From positions 1 through 55,284 of IMG/VR virus record IMGVR_UViG_2648501186_000003: 55,284 bases of DNA, one strand, 5' to 3'. The DNA comes from a virus (lineage: Duplodnaviria > Heunggongvirae > Uroviricota > Caudoviricetes). Below, piece by piece: positions 43,558-54,776 of the stretch. A program made the translations under genes and the position numbers. Positions within the stretch are counted from its first letter, which is position 1, and the number at the start of each line of letters is the position of its first letter. Below the pieces are notes generated by a model. That model did not search any database. It worked only from the letters and a program-made list of their open reading frames with translations, and was not told the origin of the DNA.

Positions 43558-46704
<3,147 letters not shown>

Positions 46705-47752: not shown

Positions 47753-49113
47753 TAATCCTCTTGCCAGTCAGCACCAGCATAGTTATCAAACCGTGAGTAT
47801 TGGCCGTTAAAAGCCAATCTCACCGTGCCAATTGGGCCATTTCGTTGCTTACCGATAATCACCTCGGCAATGCCCTTCATTTCGCTATCCGGGTGATAAA
47901 CTTCGTCGCGATACAGAAACATGATCAGGTCTGCGTCCTGCTCAATTGCTCCTGATTCACGTAAATCTGAATTTACCGGTCGTTTGTCCGCACGCTGTTC
48001 AAGCGATCGATTAAGTTGTGACAATGCCACCACCGGTACTTGTAATTCCTTCGCCAAAGCCTTCAGTGAGCGAGAAATCTCGGCAATTTCCAGCGTTCGG
48101 TTATCTTGCAGCTCGGGGACGCGCATAAGTTGCAGGTAGTCGATCATAATCATGCTCAAACCACCATTTTCTTTATAAACACGACGAGCGCGGGAACGAA
48201 GCTCTGTAGGTGTCAAGGCGCTTGAGTCATCAATAAAAATATTCTGCTTGTCCAACAGAATCCCCATTGCGCCAGAAACCCGCGCCCAATCCTCGTCGTT
48301 AAGTTGCCCTGTTCGAATACGAGTCTGATCAACGCGTGCAAGAGAAGCCAGTGAGCGCATCATCAGCTGGTGGCTCGGCATCTCAAGGCTAAAAACCAAT
48401 ACGGGCTTATCGTTACGGACTGCGGCATTTTCGACGAGATTCATCGCAAACGTAGTCTTCCCCATAGATGGGCGGGCGGCGACAATGATGAGATCGGACG
48501 GCTGAAGCCCTGCCGTCTTCTTATTGAGATCGGTAAATCCGGTATCAAGCCCCGTTACACCATCATGCGGTCGCTGAAACAACTCTTCTATGCGAGATAC
48601 CGTTGCATCGAGAATGCTGGCGATATCTTTTGGACCACTACCGCTCTTTTGTCGTTTTTCAGCTATTTCAAAAACGCGGCGCTCGGCCATATCCAGCAAT
48701 TCATTGCTGCCCCTGCCATCTTGCGCATATCCAGCTTCAGCTATTTCATTTGCGACGGAAATCATTTCACGAACAACCGCGCGTTCACGAACGATATCCG
48801 CATAAGCACAAATATTTGCCGCGCTGGGCGTGTTCTTTGACATCTCCGCAAGGTACGCAAAACCACCAGCACGTTCTAATTTACCGTTCTGTTCAAGTGC
48901 TTCAGCAAGTGTTATCAAATCAATCGGTTTGCCATGACTTAATAACCTCTCCATCTCACTGAAAATTTCACGATGAGCACTGGTATAAAAATCATCAGCA
49001 ACTATACGATCTGCAACTTCATCCCAGCGGCAGTTATCAAGCATTAAGCCACCAAGCACAGCTTGTTCTGCACTAAGGGAATTTGGCATGGATTCAAGAG
49101 GGGATGCAGACAT
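47749..49113 (-). CDS. ban: DnaB-family replicative helicase (P1 Ban)
   Basis: 454 aa; Walker A GKT (ARPSMGKTTFAMN) and DnaB N-terminal domain. Confidence 0.9.
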   Translation of the reverse strand: MSASPLESMPNSLSAEQAVLGGLMLDNCRWDEVADRIVADDFYTSAHREIFSEMERLLSHGKPIDLITLAEALEQNGKLERAGGFAYLAEMSKNTPSAANICAYADIVRERAVVREMISVANEIAEAGYAQDGRGSNELLDMAERRVFEIAEKRQKSGSGPKDIASILDATVSRIEELFQRPHDGVTGLDTGFTDLNKKTAGLQPSDLIIVAARPSMGKTTFAMNLVENAAVRNDKPVLVFSLEMPSHQLMMRSLASLARVDQTRIRTGQLNDEDWARVSGAMGILLDKQNIFIDDSSALTPTELRSRARRVYKENGGLSMIMIDYLQLMRVPELQDNRTLEIAEISRSLKALAKELQVPVVALSQLNRSLEQRADKRPVNSDLRESGAIEQDADLIMFLYRDEVYHPDSEMKGIAEVIIGKQRNGPIGTVRLAFNGQYSRFDNYAGADWQEDY

Positions 49114-49393
49114 TAATACTCCATCCTGGTGTGCTGAATGTCAGATATAATCGGCATACTCAAATCACTCCTAACGATATGAGTCATCACCAGAAAATCA
49201 GGATTAATGCGCCGGACTCTTCCCGGCTGTCACACCGAATCGCCAGGATGGTGAATCCGCAGTCCGACGCTATGAACGGGGCTTGCACATTCCGGCTACC
49301 TGGTTTGTTGCCTGAGCTAGGGGAAAGGTTACCCCTTTAACGTCACCAGACCGCTAACGACGCATGTGCCAGACGCCGTGTTACAACCAAATA

Positions 49394-49469
49394 TGGTGGC
49401 CCCTACCGGACTTGAACCGGTGACCGTGCGATTATGAGTCGCCAGCTCTAACCACTGAGCTAAAGGGCC
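49394..49469 (-). tRNA. tRNA with CAT anticodon (tRNA-Ile2 lysidine-type or Met), CCA encoded
   Basis: Cloverleaf folded by hand: 7-bp acceptor, D-arm GCTCAGTGGTTAGAGC, anticodon loop CTCATAA, T-arm CCGGTTCAAGTCCGG; resembles E. coli ileX as remembered. Confidence 0.8.
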
Positions 49470-49472
49470 GGA

Positions 49473-49580
49473 TTACTGTTTCCTGAGTGCTTCTATGACG
49501 CCAGCAATACCGCCTACAACTATGCCAGCAATGACAACGAGAACAATTGGATGCTTGTCAGCAAAATCCCAGAAGCCCAT
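49473..49580 (-). CDS. Tiny membrane peptide (35 aa), P1 tciC position
   Basis: ATG overlaps the upstream stop (TGATG); MGFWDFADKHPIVLVVIAGIVVGGIAGVIEALRKQ. Confidence 0.45.
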   Translation of the reverse strand: MGFWDFADKHPIVLVVIAGIVVGGIAGVIEALRKQ

Positions 49581-49744
49581 CACTGATCCTTAGAAGCTGT
49601 TTTTAATATCGGCCATACCAATGTTACAGCTACTGCCACCAACGCCCCGTCCGATAAAACTGACAGGATTGTGCTGGTGAAATCCACCAGCACGGACAGC
49701 AAGAGAAAACCAATGGCGATTGCGATACGTGCCTTGCTTGCCAT
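49580..49744 (-). CDS. Small membrane protein (54 aa), P1 tciB position
   Basis: ATG overlaps the tciA stop (TAATG); hydrophobic. Confidence 0.45.
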   Translation of the reverse strand: MASKARIAIAIGFLLLSVLVDFTSTILSVLSDGALVAVAVTLVWPILKTASKDQ

Positions 49745-50178
49745 TACAGATAATCTTCCACACGAAGACCTAAACGACGGCCTACTTCTTCCAGTACTTT
49801 GTGTTCTGCTGGCTCGATTTCACCGTCCGCTTCTGCAATTGTCAGCATGTTAACGAATACTTCTTCCGCTTCTTTTGGATCGTTTTTGATATCTTCAATT
49901 TCGCGAAGGATATTCATGCGACCAACACGGAAGCCAGCTTCCAGTTGCTCGGTAAAGCGGGTAATTGTTGCAGTAATTTCGTTACCAAAATGACTAAGAC
50001 GCGGATTAGAGCGGACAAGCTGATCAAGTTTCGCTGTTTCTTCTTTTTCGATTTCACCATCAGCGGCAGACACCAACAAACAGCCACCGATAATGGCCTC
50101 CATCAGATCGCGATTCTCAACTTTTTTCAGCTCTACTTTTGCAGAAGCGACTTTCTTGCCGAACAATTTACCGAACAT
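49744..50178 (-). CDS. tciA: TerB-like protein
   Basis: 144 aa with two TerB-like repeats (SAADGEIEKEE / AEADGEIEPAE). Confidence 0.65.
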   Translation of the reverse strand: MFGKLFGKKVASAKVELKKVENRDLMEAIIGGCLLVSAADGEIEKEETAKLDQLVRSNPRLSHFGNEITATITRFTEQLEAGFRVGRMNILREIEDIKNDPKEAEEVFVNMLTIAEADGEIEPAEHKVLEEVGRRLGLRVEDYL

Positions 50179-50319
50179 TGGTTATCCCTCAATAAAAGTG
50201 ACATATTTATTAGATTGCGGTACCGAGTGCCTCCCGGTGACGTTAACCAGTTAATAATTAACGCCGGAATGTTTAACCATTAAGGAGGATTGTTTTAACT
50301 GTTCCGCGTGCGCTTAGCC

Positions 50320-50396
50320 GCATTCACCGCAACGGAAAGAGCATTCCTGGTGGACCTGTAGATTGGGATATGAACCCGTTACAGGAGAATGCTCTT
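50320..50396. repeat. Copy 1 of a repeated hairpin element with a conserved 25-nt core (gtagattgggatatgaacccgttac)
   Basis: 10-bp stem (aagagcattc / gaatgctctt) encloses the core; shares the gcattcacc prefix with copy 2. Confidence 0.5.
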
Positions 50397-50580
50397 ACCT
50401 GTTACGTGCTCCGTTTCGTGGAGCTAACGGCGGGTGATCGGGCCGCACCAGACTGGACTTATTTCAGCGTTATGCTCATGCCAGAGAATCAAACTGTGAT
50501 GGTCGGTGCTGAACTCCGACACAGGGTTGTAGCAAGCCCCGCAAAGCGCGCACTACTGTAGTTGCGGCACATCAGCCTGT

Positions 50581-50680
50581 GCATTCACCACAATGTTGAG
50601 AACACTGGTTGTCACGCTGCAACGCAACATTTATTCGTAGATTGGGATATGACCCCGTTACGCCAGTGTTCTCAACGTTG
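50581..50680. repeat. Copy 2 of the repeated hairpin element (core gtagattgggatatgaccccgttac)
   Basis: 18-bp stem (caatgttgagaacactgg / ccagtgttctcaacgttg) encloses the core. Confidence 0.5.
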
Positions 50681-50827
50681 TAGTGCCGGTTACGGTTCCG
50701 GCCAGGCCTCTTCCTCAACGGGGTGTTCTCCATACGGACTACCGTTTATTGGTCGTTCCTGCGGTTTATGTTGTGAAGCCAGATGCTTATCTTCTGGTTG
50801 CTTCAAAGAGCTGCACTTCCTCACAAC

Positions 50828-50901
50828 GGTAAGGGTACTTCGTAGGGATTCGAACCCTCTGCCAAGCTCGGCGATCTCCGACGTCGCAAAATACCCTTAC
50901 C
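50828..50901 (-). ncRNA. tRNA-like element (canonical T-arm GGGTTCGAATCCC inside a 10-bp terminal stem); possible degenerate tRNA or processing hairpin
   Basis: Perfect 10-bp terminal inverted repeat GGTAAGGGTA/TACCCTTACC; no clean D or anticodon arm found by hand. Confidence 0.3.
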
Positions 50902-50909
50902 TGTTGTGT

Positions 50910-50984
50910 TGGTGCGGTTAACGGACTCGAACCGCTGACATCCTGCTTACAAGGCAGGCGCTCTACCAACTGAGCTAAACCGGC
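50910..50984 (-). tRNA. tRNA-Thr (anticodon TGT) with an imperfect acceptor stem
   Basis: D-arm GCTCAGTTGGTAGAGC, anticodon stem-loop CCTGC-CTTGTAA-GCAGG, T-arm GGTTCGAGTCC; the 3' acceptor strand appears one nt short. Confidence 0.65.
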
Positions 50985-50986
50985 AT

Positions 50987-51062
50987 TGGCGATGGTGGAT
51001 GGATTTGAACCATCGACCCGTTGATTAACAGTCAACTGCTCTAACCGCTGAGCTACACCATC
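50987..51062 (-). tRNA. tRNA-Asn (anticodon GTT)
   Basis: Acceptor GATGGTG/CACCATC, anticodon loop CTGTTAA, T-arm GATGGTTCAAATCCATC, CCA encoded; lies 2 nt upstream of tRNA-Thr. Confidence 0.8.
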
Positions 51063-51727
51063 ACTTGCCGGGTACGTCTCCGGCGAGGGCTTCCACCTCC
51101 GTATGCTTTTCGGCGCACCGCGCCCTGGCTGCAATTCGGTAACAGGGGATGCATAACCCTGGCTTCCAGCGTGATTAGCGCTTTCAGCATGACGGGATAT
51201 ACCCGTAAATTCGTGGAACTGTACCCAAAGTGCTGTTAAGCACCGCTGTTACGCTGAAAAGAAGACGCAACAGGAAAGGACGCTGACCAACAGATGGCCC
51301 CTTCTCGTTCATCTGGTTAATCACACCAGCGCCCTTACCTGTTGTGCCTCCCCGTTCCCTAATACACAGACGGGGACACTCTGCGGTCGATTTTTTGACG
51401 GGGGACGACTCATACCCCGTGGCGCCTGGCTTCTTAGGCCGCTACCATCATCAGATCATCGTTTGCATTTACTTTAATGGTCAGTTTCTAAACCGCCGCA
51501 AAGTCGCTAACCATGACGAAAACCCTGAAAAAAACGCCCACCCGAAGATGGGCAAACTGGAAGCTCGTAACGCACTTCGGCGTTGCCACTTAGGCGCATG
51601 GTCAACCTGGCAACTCGGTGGTTTGTCTGGGAGGACTAGGCCCAGCCATGCTTACCGCCGCGCCTATTGCGGCTAACAGCTAAATCGCTCTATAAATCAC
51701 GATTCATTGAGGCGATATTACACTAAT

Positions 51728-51744
51728 AAATATATTAGAGCAAT
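51728..51744 (-). promoter_or_regulatory. C1-operator-like site (16/17), overlapping a second divergent 14/17 site at 51716-51732
   Basis: aaatatattagagcaat, at the 3' end of dmt. Confidence 0.45.
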
Positions 51745-54700
51745 ATTGCTATAACGTCATGAGCAACACCACGAGTGTCTCCCTTACAGGACACAGAACG
51801 TCTGGCAAAAAGAGGTTCCACTCTGAAGCCACTGTCCTGATAAAGTTCTCTGATGTTTGGCGCGCCACTGTTAGTAATGAGAACCTTTGCACCTCGGCGA
51901 TGAGCATCCGTCAACAGAGACACCAGGCGTTTTTGCTCTTCAAACTTAAAGTCATGACCGGAATAGTTCGTGAACCCCTCTGTATTGGGGAGCGGTTCAT
52001 ACGGCGGATCGCAAAAGATGACATCTCCTTCTCCGGCAGCTTCAATCACCGCTGCAAAATCACCGCATACAAACTCAGACCGCCCTTCCGCACCGAGGAA
52101 GGCTTCCATCTCCTGTAATGGGAAATACGGAGTTTTATACTTCCCATAACCGACATTGAACTCACCGGCCTGGTTGTAACGCGTCAATCCGTTAAAACAA
52201 TGTCGGTTCAGGAACAAAAACGCCGCTGCGCGATGTAAATCATCATAGACTTGTTTGTTAAACGCATTCCGTACTGCCAGGTATCCTTCCTGTGTGTTGT
52301 AGTCCTGGAAGAAACGATGTGCCAGAGTGATAAGTGAATGCGCCTCGCGTTGCAGAGTCTTGTAAAAGTTAATCAGGTCAGCATTCACATCATTTAGCAG
52401 ATTTTCCTGGTATCCGGCATTCATGAAGACAGCTCCGCCACCAACGAAAGGTTCAATCAGGCGCTTCCCTTCTGGCAAATAGCGAAAGATTTGTTCCAGA
52501 ACACCAAATTTTCCACCAGCCCATTTGAATATGGACCGTTCGAATTCTGTCGCTGGTTTAACTTTTCGCTCTTTTGTTTCACTTCCTTCTTTCTGCCGAC
52601 ATACGGCCTTAGTAATCCGATCGCCAATCCAGCGCATTACTGGTATTGCCATACTATTGCCGATCGCTTTGTAACGCGATCCGTCAGCTGCAAGCATCGC
52701 GGCCTCTTCTTCGCTTAAATCTGGATAGTGATTGCGAAGGTATGCCAGTTCATCTGAAGAAACTTTTTTACGCTTTCCCGTAGGGATCAACGTATGCCAA
52801 TCAGGAAAACCTTGCAGCCTTTCACATTCGACAGGGGTAAGACGGCGCATTCTACCGTCGCCGAGCAATACAATTGGTGCTTCATGGTTACATGTCAAAG
52901 TTGGTGCCGAATTATCGGTTTTTATCTCAGCCCCTCCTTGCCCATGTGCCATGGCAACTATGTTTGTATCATCGCAAGATCTGATAGCGATGTTTGAAGT
53001 ATATCTGGTAGTTTCCTTCCCCTCGCCTCTACTCGGCGCAATATCCCGGCGCACGCCTTCGAACTCAAAAAGTACCGTTGCGGGATCGAGGTCTGTTCGA
53101 GCACTTGCGACAACAAACACGCGTCGGCGTCGTTGTGCCACTCCGAAGTATTGGGCATCAAGGATTCTCCAGGCCACCTTTCGCTGCGGTCCATAAATAC
53201 AACCACACTGCGGCCACTTTGGAGCATGGCAACCGGTTTTGACATCCCACCGCCAGAACGCGTTACTTTTTCCTGATTCAGGTCGCTCACCTGGTTCAAA
53301 TGGCGCATCTTCTCCAGCCAATCCGGCAAGGAAACATCCGAAGGCGTTATCTGCCGATGACAAGACTCCTGGGACATTTTCCCAGACGATAACGGCTGGT
53401 TTGAGAAATGACTCAGCCCGTTTGTCGTCAATTGCATTTGCAAGCTCCACATACTTTAAAGTTAGCGCGCCACGCTCATCATCAAGCCCACCACGTAATC
53501 CCGCGATACTGAATGCCTGACAGTTATGGACCACCGCACCATTGAGGATATAGGAATGATCACCTTCGACTTCTATGTTGTATACAGTATCTAGGCCTAC
53601 CGATTTAAACTCTTTGACTGTTCGTAAAAGCATTCCATGAGCCAATCTTGATTTACGTGACAATTTCTGCGGGCAGATTGTTACCTGATAATAATTCCGT
53701 TGATTTACCACGCGATCCTCGATCACTTTTTTGGGCTCAACTTCAATAAAGCTGACCGAAGAAACATAACCACAAGTCTGTGACACCCCCGCAACGCCCC
53801 AAGCAAGCGCAGGACTAACACTATTAATTCTAAATCCCGCTTTACCACTTGGTGTCCCATCAGTATCAAGATAGCCTTGTAAAAACACATGACGCAATGG
53901 ATGCGACATCACCCATGCAGGGATACGCTTAGCATGGCTTAACTCGCCAAAATGTTCATTAAGCCAATTGGCATAACACGTATCATTCAAGGTTACTTTG
54001 ATGCTCCCTCGGATTTCGCTTGCCACGGAAAATATGTTTTCTGGTATGCGGCAATGAAACTTTCTCAATTTCTGGCAATTTATGCCAAAAACAACCGCCT
54101 TCTTAGATTTACCTCTCCATCTCCTAATATATCCATCGCCAACATAAGCGCCCGCAAGATACATAGCCTGTTCTTCAGACAAGAACCGAGAACAAATATC
54201 TGGAGATGCAATATTGAAATTAGTTAGAGCGCACCATTGATATCCCGGCATATCACATGCTGCTCGCCATTCCGGTTCAGACAACAACTCTCTCTTAAAA
54301 TATGTGCCATTTTTCCGGGTGTTTTGGGCTTTCCACCGAACAGCCAGGAAGGGATGGTCATTGGTTGTTCTTATACCTAAAGGCTGCCCAACGGCATTAA
54401 GTAACCCCGTATTAGCTATTTTTGAACCAACTCTTTTTACTTGTTGTAACCGCCCGAGATGACTGACTACGTAATCGCCAGGGCAAACATCTTCTATTGG
54501 TTTATAACCATTTTTACAAAGAACCATATGCCCCGCGGTAAAACATGGTGTTCCCCCGACGAGCACGTCAGGGGATTCGATTTCCCCAGCCAAGACTTTT
54601 TTGGCAAGTTTTGTCATGTCGCCAAGGTTGGCGACATGGGGCCAGCGGAGCGCAAGAACGGCCGATGGAAAAGGCTCGATTTCAGCAAACCACGCCGGAC

Positions 54701-54776
54701 GCATACCCAACGTTTCCCAGGCAATACTCGCGGCTTCAATTCCACTGCAAACAGATCCATAGCACAGCTCTTTCAC
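51735..54776 (-). CDS. dmt: Bifunctional DNA methyltransferase: N-terminal C5-cytosine methyltransferase interrupted by an intein, C-terminal Dam-like N6-adenine methyltransferase
   Basis: C5 motifs: GGTP|intein|CQAFSIAG (PCQ) and ENV. Dam motifs: [23 protein letters not shown] start. Confidence 0.85.
53523..54545 (-). mobile_element. Intein (341 aa) with LAGLIDADG homing-endonuclease domain, inserted in the PCQ motif of the C5-methyltransferase
   Basis: Starts CFTAGHMVL...PIEDV, has a TxxH block (TTNDHPF), [10 protein letters not shown] and [10 protein letters not shown] motifs, and ends [21 protein letters not shown] followed by Cys (+1). Confidence 0.8.

Follow-up and report, generated by a model that had tools for sequence, protein, structure and literature searches.

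What are the repeated, inverted sequences that lie between tciA and the transfer RNA (tRNA) pair of P1-like phages, and what would they do there? We addressed this question in IMG/VR virus record IMGVR_UViG_2648501186_000003, analysed at its full length of 55,284 nucleotides (hereafter the window), which judging from its sequence is a P1-like phage. The 736 bases separating its tciA from tRNA-Thr have matches in P1, P7, D6, RCS47, SJ46 and other Punavirus records. A preliminary description had noticed two copies of a hairpin element with a conserved 25-nt core here, correctly placed between tciA and the tRNA-Thr and tRNA-Asn genes. It had only these two copies to go by; the family extends past the interval described and beyond P1, and the predicted hairpins are widespread in enterobacterial temperate phages, both P1-like and lambdoid. 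Very probably they form a family of structured RNAs encoded on the minus strand rather than the protein genes, upl and plp, that are annotated on the other strand. As to their role, the best explanation overall is that they are cis-acting minus-strand RNA hairpins, serving as RNase III-type processing stems that separate modules, a proposal to which we give about an even chance of being right.

The core, GTAGATTGGGATATGAACCCGTTAC, recurs in the second copy with 24/25 identity, and no further match with three or fewer mismatches was found in the window (0.00 in shuffles). Both copies are carried at the apex of long inverted repeats, as had been described. Copy 1 is flanked by 50334-50346 and 50387-50399, which pair over 13 bp with one mismatch (10 bp perfect) around an inner stem CCTGTA/TACAGG, and copy 2 by 50586-50608 and 50663-50685, which pair over 23 bp with two mismatches (14+4 bp perfect), in agreement with the stem lengths of 10 and 18 bp given before. 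The two stems are homologous yet diverged (GGUAAGAGCA/UGCUCUUUCC versus GUUGAGAACA/UGUUCUCAAC), and the differing positions are compensated on the opposite arm, which bears out the compensatory changes first noticed in the pair. The common prefix GCATTCACC, which had been taken as part of the element, is indeed present at both copies, but it belongs to the start of the module that follows each hairpin.

On the minus strand, the hairpins share a frame, 5'-AACAGGUAAGRG...CYCUUWCC(U)GUUG-3', whose flanks themselves form the base of the stem. Three exact occurrences of AACAGGTAAGRG are found in the window, all on the minus strand (0.28 expected). The hairpin of copy 1 (E1; conserved arms 50392-50403 and 50330-50341) and two additional hairpins, E3 and E0, match the frame exactly. 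The arms of the copy 2 hairpin (E2), CAGUGUUCUCAACAUUGUGGUGAAUGC, align with the frame CAGUGCUCUUUCCGUUGUGGUGAAUGC, with 5/27 positions of the 3' arm changed and compensated on the 5' arm. The predicted stems comprise 22 pairs in E2, 3+2+11 pairs plus 6 inner pairs in E1, about 18 in E3, and 7+7+9 or more in E0. When IMG/VR was scanned for both arms at a spacing of 30-60 nt and the matches were pooled with the loci found earlier, the family came to at least 332 instances in at least 214 phage loci, most of the newly found loci being contigs of about 40 kb. These instances carry at least 79 distinct interiors that fall into at least 39 unrelated classes, each 29-50 nt long. The family stem measures about 19-23 bp, consisting of the conserved arms and five further base pairs with covariation, and it contains a bulged A, usually a U.U mismatch and a conserved U.G pair. 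Family members are oriented in the direction of transcription; typically, a same-strand intrinsic terminator, a tRNA end or a small hairpin plus CAC/CAU stands upstream, and GUUGUGGUGAAUGCGCAGGCUGAUGCGC (GUUGYGGUGAAUGC) or a tRNA 5' end stands downstream, the former also after E2 and at many lambdoid loci.

We examined pairing across the family in an arm alignment of 67 distinct members. Part of the arms is fixed by the search pattern, which leaves as informative columns those of the purine/pyrimidine (R/Y) pair, of five distal pairs and of the outer flanks. In this alignment, 94.4% of cells are paired, as opposed to 35-63% when the partners are slid. Changes on both sides of a pair were counted in 43 cells versus 15.3 in shuffles, a count that 0/500 shuffles reached. 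Five pairs covary; at one distal pair, for example, G-C occurs 34 times, C-G 12, U-A 9 and U-G 6, and the distal stem of E1, CAUUC/GAAUG, is one of the covarying types. The U.G pair is kept in 47/67 members and the U.U mismatch in 50/67, while the bulged A is invariant. Of the checks that the preliminary description had proposed, covariation thus came out family-wide in the arms, whereas the covariance-model search brought up no relevant Rfam match and the copy 2 variants of P1-like phages were too little diverged. Specifically, an Rfam 15 scan of the hairpins returned chance matches to microRNA precursors only and nothing at the related lambda hairpin region treated below, and a covariance model built from the arms only, with a 4-nt dummy loop and hence intolerant of interiors of 30-60 nt, scored E1 at 10.8 bits.

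Folding energies favoured the minus strand. The minimum free energy was -27.7 kcal/mol on the minus strand (z -6.6) versus -26.5 kcal/mol on the plus strand for E1, -49.2 (z -6.1) versus -42.2 kcal/mol for E2, -34.1 versus -27.3 kcal/mol for E3 and -37.0 versus -29.5 kcal/mol for a Yersinia relative, and E0 reached -47.8 kcal/mol (z -5.4). The dominance of the minimum free energy structure within the ensemble was also much stronger on the minus strand than on the plus strand. In a set of 28 distinct copy 2 variants taken from P1-like contigs, one-sided variation affects ten stem pairs, and all of them (10/10) stay paired through G.U, by changes that would be A.C mismatches on the plus strand; 7/9 transitions at Watson-Crick pairs lead to G.U, not A.C. 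Double-sided changes were absent among these little-diverged variants, and the one-sided changes were no better than shuffles. Because the distal stem covaries across the family and G.U pairs legal on one strand only are conserved, selection appears to act on RNA pairing. The earlier suggestion of a hairpin family acting as structured RNA is strengthened by this strand bias, by the covariation of the family stems and by that of the stems around the core in five frames. A 15-nt inverted repeat (80%) between 50645-50659 in the copy 2 core and 50717-50731, reading ACCCCGUU and AACGGGGU on the minus strand, offered an alternative pairing for that core; it lies at chance level for the search space and was rejected.

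A comparison with mobile repeats was also made. As regards miniature inverted-repeat transposable elements, with their near-identical copies and target-site duplications, and integron attC-like sites, the hairpins do have inverted arms; their interiors, however, are unrelated between copies, and no duplication was seen at the junctions. Differences in presence or absence concern whole modules with junctions in the arms, and neither GTTGTGG nor GTTGCGG fits the attC motif GTTRRRY.

The core is one predicted interior class of the family. It occurs in P1-like phages (117 IMG/VR stretches) and in three Yersinia-type lambdoid prophages (L088, L127 from Y. alsatica, and L237). A contig scan with an 18-base core returned one P1-like and one Yersinia locus, along with eight matches in unrelated bacteria that were treated as chance. 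In the Yersinia-type prophages, the core element directly follows the Q gene and a tR'-like terminator; its outer stem (CUACAUUCG.../...CGAAUGUGG) is unrelated in sequence, and the same GUGGUGAAUGC junction comes next. The idea that the core is one of the prophage sRNAs PasA and PasC was considered and rejected; no E. coli homologue of the Yersinia-type unit was found. E2 and the Yersinia elements share the same predicted three-way junction, at which the outer stem meets the core hairpin and another hairpin whose loop is of the UUGCAG type. The stem that closes the core is CCUGUA/UACAGG in E1, CGUA/UACG (or UAUG) in E2, CUGAGUA/UAUUCAG in L088 and CUGAAUA/UAUUCGG in L127, with both sides changed in 4/7 basal pairs. 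In the invariant part, AC-GGG-N-UCAUAU-CCC-AAUC, only N varies (U, G or A), and the whole is predicted to fold as a small hairpin (GGG-NUCAUAU-CCC) that has an internal loop, AC/AAUC. Because the core is unchanged in five different stem frames, it points to a sequence-specific role of its own.

Tentatively, the core had been read as containing a T-loop-like sequence on the minus strand and as possibly tRNA-derived. The T-loop reading was not supported, given that the loop (UUCAUAU or GUCAUAU) has U at position 58 in place of A, that position 54 varies between U, G and A, and that the stem is only 3 bp long. No cloverleaf was detected at the hairpins by ARAGORN or by Rfam RF00005, both of which find only the Met, Thr and Asn tRNAs. 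Compared base by base, the core loop fits the anticodon loop of initiator tRNA better than a T-loop: it has seven nucleotides with a free N32, a fixed U33, CAU and A37, and is closed by three G-C pairs (GGG/CCC). A full 5-bp anticodon stem is not formed, as A27.A43 and C28.A42 are unpaired and the AC/AAUC internal loop takes their place. T-arm-like interiors exist elsewhere in the family, namely AGGG-UUCGAAU-CCCU, which occurs in E3 as well as in two lambdoid frames whose distal stems differ, and GUAGAG-UUCGACU-CUCUAC in another interior class.

The transcriptional setting can be read from related phages. As annotated for P1 and P7, the ban promoter and a bivalent C1 operator, Op72, adjoin the start of dmt and drive an operon that runs on the minus strand in the order dicF-like region, trnN, trnT, hairpin region, tciA-tciB-tciC, trnI and ban. 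From this annotation we infer that the hairpin region lies within the leader of the C1-controlled, that is C1-repressed, ban operon and would be transcribed from the minus strand. No promoter-like or terminator-like site was found within 50180-50910 on either strand, nor was the intrinsic terminator signature of a G+C-rich hairpin followed by a U tract. The features of the locus are collected in Table 1.

Table 1 Hairpins, cores and neighbouring features of the locus, in window coordinates
Feature	Position	Strand	Remarks
tRNA-Met/Ile(CAU)	49394-49469	minus	ARAGORN and Rfam
tciA	49744-50178	minus	TerB family
STnc100/PasD-like leader of tciA	50216-50331	minus	Rfam RF02076, 37.7 bits versus gathering score 47 (sub-threshold)
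GGUGAAUGC, copy 1 (the prefix of the preliminary description)	50320-50328	minus	start of the STnc100-like leader module after E1
Hairpin E1 (copy 1)	50330-50403	minus	frame AACAGGUAAGAGCAUUC ... GAAUGCUCUUUCCGUUG, bulged A, U.U mismatch; interior is the core hairpin
Core, copy 1	50358-50382	minus	GUAAC-GGG-UUCAUAU-CCC-AAUC-UAC; closing stem at 50355-50360 / 50380-50385
Spacer module between E2 and E1	50400-50585	minus	3' end is hairpin GCUCC-ACGAAAC-GGAGC, 50408-50424
GGUGAAUGC, copy 2	50581-50589	minus	start of the module after E2, followed by D-arm-like hairpin GCACA-GGCUGA-UGUGC
Hairpin E2 (copy 2)	50586-50685	minus	23-bp outer stem enclosing a predicted three-way junction
Second inner hairpin of E2	50610-50629	minus	UGUUGCG-UUGCAG-CGUGACA; U.G and G.U pairs legal on the minus strand only
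Core, copy 2	50637-50661	minus	GUAAC-GGG-GUCAUAU-CCC-AAUC-UAC; basal stem CGUA/UACG
Hairpin E3	50824-50905	minus	directly after the CCA end of tRNA-Thr; T-arm-like interior
tRNA-Thr(UGU)	50911-50984	minus	ARAGORN and Rfam
tRNA-Asn(GUU)	50987-51062	minus	ARAGORN and Rfam
Hairpin E0	51255-51352 (frame 51262-51345)	minus	upstream of tRNA-Asn
Palindromic C1 operator (Op72 / Oban) with ban promoter	~51728-51754	minus	P1/P7 annotation; palindrome present in the window

The hairpins stand between self-contained RNA modules, which are tRNAs, tRNA-shaped modules resembling small RNAs (sRNAs), such as the STnc100-like leader of tciA, and messenger RNAs (mRNAs). Because the predicted stems with their flanks reach 19-23 bp with irregularities, as do RNase III substrates in phage and ribosomal RNA (rRNA) precursors, we propose processing by this enzyme, whose substrates have a helix of about two turns (at least 20 bp, internal loops allowed), as is predicted here. 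Host RNase III would cut the long imperfect double-stranded stem within the part AAGAGCAUU/AGUGCUCUU, thereby separating the polycistronic precursor into tRNAs, sRNA-like modules and the tciABC-trnI-ban mRNA. The neighbouring tRNAs, sRNAs and mRNAs would gain defined ends, and the apical part would be freed as a small stem-loop RNA. For cleavage in the conserved stem with separation of modules and release of the apical hairpin, taken by itself, we put the chance at slightly below even.

Processing hairpins in phage polycistronic RNA are a known kind of element, and the closest known relative of the window hairpins is the family member of lambda (J02459 44791-44857), which follows the 6S terminator tR' immediately and precedes gene S. 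It has the same frame (AACAGGTAAGAGCATTG...CAGTGCTCTTTCCGTTGTG), bulged A, U.U mismatch and orientation to transcription, and, like the hairpins of the window, it precedes the next module, here at the start of the long polycistronic late-operon RNA. It differs in its unrelated interior, AGUCGAUAAUCGUGAAGAGUCGGCGAGCCUGGUUAGC, and in being a single copy without a tRNA array. The segment made of tR' and hairpin was found in 115 phage records, including 54 from Klebsiella, 37 from Escherichia, seven from Salmonella, three from Erwinia and three from Enterobacter. RNase III processing sites in the Q-dependent late RNA of lambda are reportedly, to go by its title, the subject of work by Daniels et al. 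from 1988 (Virology 167:568, reference 49 in PMC7547250). Published K-12 RNase III maps are uninformative here because the E. coli K-12 prophages DLP12 and Qin have no family member. The RNase III hairpins of T7 early RNA (R1.1 and others) and the 16S/23S rRNA stems are likewise long imperfect stems between units of one precursor, with internal loops or mismatches as here. Unlike the present family, for which cleavage is only proposed, they show little sequence conservation and no exchangeable conserved interiors. The family, the frame with exchangeable interiors, its presence in the ban leader and the anticodon-loop-like core were not found in Rfam or in the literature searched. If the explanation proposed here is right, the P1 ban leader and the lambda late-operon leader use the same modular design, and a widespread phage RNA family absent from Rfam has been defined. 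With its conserved stem and swappable interiors, the family would offer a simple entry point for studying the processing of tRNA and small-RNA arrays in phages. One could also ask if the hairpins, once excised, do anything by themselves, now that arrays of phage tRNAs are coming to be connected with the evasion of tRNA-cleaving defences.

Several observations weigh against the processing proposal. RNase III needs little sequence specificity, so the fact that the basal stem is strongly conserved in sequence, together with its bulged A and U.U mismatch, suggests another recognising factor or recombinational spread; RNase III alone does not explain this conservation, and one of these two may account for it. 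In lambda, RNase III sites are presumably located just beyond tR' and may or may not coincide with the 44791-44857 hairpin. A DicF-like intrinsic terminator (51535-51557), situated downstream of the ban promoter but ahead of the array, may restrict transcription of the region. Natural variants also depart from the expected structure. In SJ46-type phages (L007 1520-1612; L042, L017), a single hybrid copy made of one E2 arm, the core and the opposite arm of E1 has arisen by a 279-bp deletion through recombination between the two 25-nt cores, and this hybrid no longer folds (z +0.93). E1 of Ro157c2YLVW (L006) carries an exact 13-nt deletion of the GGGUUCAUAUCCC hairpin (GGGTTCATATCCC), leaving GTAAC|AATCTAC. 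As natural variants thus have an unfolded hybrid or lack part of the core, neither the stems nor the core are essential, and the elements are accessory. Consistent with this, plp and upl, the genes annotated across the hairpins, were non-essential in a CRISPR interference screen (PMC10695390).

Among the alternatives, the first is that the hairpins are passive structural spacers whose stems are not cut at all. They would let neighbouring tRNAs and tRNA-shaped modules fold independently and, after RNase E or RNase P has cut in single-stranded linkers, would shield the new ends from RNase E and exonucleases. The spacing suits this idea, hairpins being placed 5-9 nt behind the CCA end of a tRNA (98/231 instances in P1-like loci) or 3 nt ahead of a tRNA 5' end. 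The linkers are rich in A (ACACAACAG), and the interiors vary greatly, as expected were only the stem important. On the other hand, these interiors keep a length of 29-50 nt with substructure of their own and have not shrunk to a tetraloop. Conservation in different frames is seen for the core as well as for the T-arm-like interior, and the sequence of the basal stem is conserved far past what stability needs. We therefore regard a purely structural role as unlikely.

Distinctly less probable is that the arms are DNA-level homology linkers for module swapping by recombination, the RNA hairpin being a by-product. T4-type PeSL cassettes offer the precedent, as they too are short conserved stem-loops at module borders tied to mosaic gene shuffling; they differ in including a promoter and flanking protein-coding open reading frames (ORFs), whereas the hairpins described here are without promoter and flank RNA genes. 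P1-like phages do differ by whole modules, and their breakpoints fall in the arms or flanks. P7 and D6 diverge from the window at 50343/50570, an extra hairpin module present in RCS47 and in one P1 isolate has in RCS47 a junction overlap of 22 bp at 50811-50833, and the inter-core deletion of SJ46 belongs to the same series. In other P1-like phages, the second half of the E2-E1 spacer and E1 are replaced by tRNA-Ser(UGA) and another hairpin, in the upstream cluster tRNA-Tyr or tRNA-Arg is added or swapped, and the element directly after tRNA-Thr is E3, E2 or E1 depending on the phage. That P1-like and lambdoid phages have the frame in common also agrees with exchange by homology. Homology linkers, however, do not require inverted repeats, nor would they account for the covarying distal stem (G-C, C-G and U-A at one pair) or for the conservation of G.U pairs legal on one strand only.

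A very unlikely alternative concerns the core, which would be a mimic of the initiator tRNA anticodon stem-loop, freed from the scaffold to serve as decoy or ligand of a tRNA-binding factor such as a VapC-type nuclease cutting tRNA-fMet, methionyl-tRNA synthetase (MetRS) or TilS. The loop NUCAUAU varies in its first base only, the other six being fixed in the P1 copies and in three Yersinia-type frames. Moreover, 13/17 positions are identical to the anticodon arm of E. coli tRNA-fMet in its textbook sequence. The core also sits within phage tRNA arrays of varying content, and another interior class is a canonical T-arm. The resemblance was nevertheless noticed post hoc, with a chance match estimated at about 1-5%. 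Neither pair 27-43 nor pair 28-42 forms, U stands at position 38 instead of A, and the core is dispensable in natural variants. A broader version of this idea joins it to RNase III excision: the conserved stem would be a scaffold for expressing exchangeable mini-RNAs of 30-50 nt (at least 39 classes). Several of these would be look-alikes of tRNA arms, the core corresponding to an initiator-type anticodon arm and at least two further classes to T-arms. Together with the variable set of phage tRNA genes between which they sit, they would serve to decoy host defences or toxins that target tRNAs. We consider this a long shot.

It is hardly probable that the hairpins are decaying relics of tRNA genes that duplications and deletions have left behind in the array, devoid of present function. 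They do occupy positions that hold real tRNAs in relatives (tRNA-Ser in D6/P7-type phages), and pieces resembling T-arms and anticodon arms occur in their interiors. Decay, however, would not preserve the sequence and pairing of the frame, with compensatory changes, over hundreds of loci in unrelated phage groups, and neither ARAGORN nor the Rfam tRNA model recovers a cloverleaf.

Lastly, the P1 reference NC_005856 and RCS47 annotate upl (50370-50561) and plp (50562-50921) on the plus strand, antisense to the ban operon, and both cores are in frame with these ORFs (VDWDMNPLQ and VDWDMTPLR). The preliminary description had allowed that coding by Upl and Plp might explain the conservation, and this did not prove to be the case. 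In tciA, 24/27 variable sites among homologues fall in one codon phase, whereas the split across phases is 4/3/2 in upl and 8/5/9 in plp, without an excess at third positions. The frames are broken as well: plp of the window has a 1-nt indel relative to all 15 full-length homologues and overlaps tRNA-Thr, and upl carries an in-frame TAA in one group of variants (L103/L033), has lost 2 nt in another (L119) and is not present in P7 and D6. No Pfam match was found for either ORF at E <= 0.001, no usable ribosome-binding site precedes them, and no plus-strand promoter was found in the window. That the conservation reflects these plus-strand protein genes is thus almost certainly wrong. If the structured RNA reading is true, the two long-standing P1 annotations, upl and plp, are to be replaced by RNA elements on the opposite strand.

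The modules between the hairpins have features of their own. The minus-strand spacers 50400-50589 and 50686-50827 look like tRNA-shaped modules, as they open with GUGGUGAAUGC and a D-arm-like hairpin and close with a T-arm-sized hairpin and CAC/CAU. Many such spacers are flanked by GUUGUGGUG...CACCACAAC, and the same modules recur in lambdoid loci. The GCUCC/GGAGC hairpin at the end of the E2-E1 spacer covaries to ACUCC/GGAGU in variants, and hairpins of this type stand before family hairpins in many lambdoid loci. Similarly, the sequence after the lambda hairpin, GCUGAAUUAAGCGAAUACCGGAAGCAGAACCGGAUCACCAAAUGCGUACAGGCGUCAUCGCCGCCCAGC (L233 638-730, J02459 ~44858-44950), is flanked by GUUGUGCUG...CAGCACAAC and reappears as the interior of the hairpin after tRNA-Ser in D6/P7-type phages. 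The leader of tciA (about 120 bp) is unlike that of the P1 reference, is common to P7 and D6, and is about 80% identical to a segment in lambdoid phages (e.g., Rac-SA53) and in an Aeromonas phage. STnc100/PasD is a prophage sRNA family (RF02076; bioRxiv 10.64898/2026.05.13.724894), and the module resembling it adjoins E1 and shares its prophage neighbourhoods (Q, RusA, TerB and tRNAs) with the hairpins. It is a separate RNA, however, as the RF02076 match does not reach the hairpins.

Upstream of the array, the minus-strand stretch 51519-51620 corresponds to the dicF-like region of the P1 annotation, its 3' end being the strong intrinsic terminator mentioned above, and an Rfam scan of 49000-52000 returned no DicF match. 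Between E0 and tRNA-Asn, a minus-strand hairpin, ACGGG-UAUAU-CCCGU (51195-51215), resembles the core motif ACGGG-UUCAUAU-CCC with a shorter loop and may be a relative of the core or a chance occurrence. The tRNA sets of P1-like phages (L002, L006, L009, L012, L015, L023 and others) have Asn-Thr as their base, with Tyr(GUA), Arg(UCU) and Ser(UGA) added or swapped by lineage. Finally, Dmt, encoded on the minus strand at 51735-54776, has 1013 amino acids in the window versus 754 in the P1 reference. Pfam places a Hint domain at amino acids 77-126 and a LAGLIDADG domain at 298-361 within the C5-methylase part, with C...HNC at the flanks. This insert is a predicted intein with a homing endonuclease, and long dmt genes are also present in OP279344 and RCS47.

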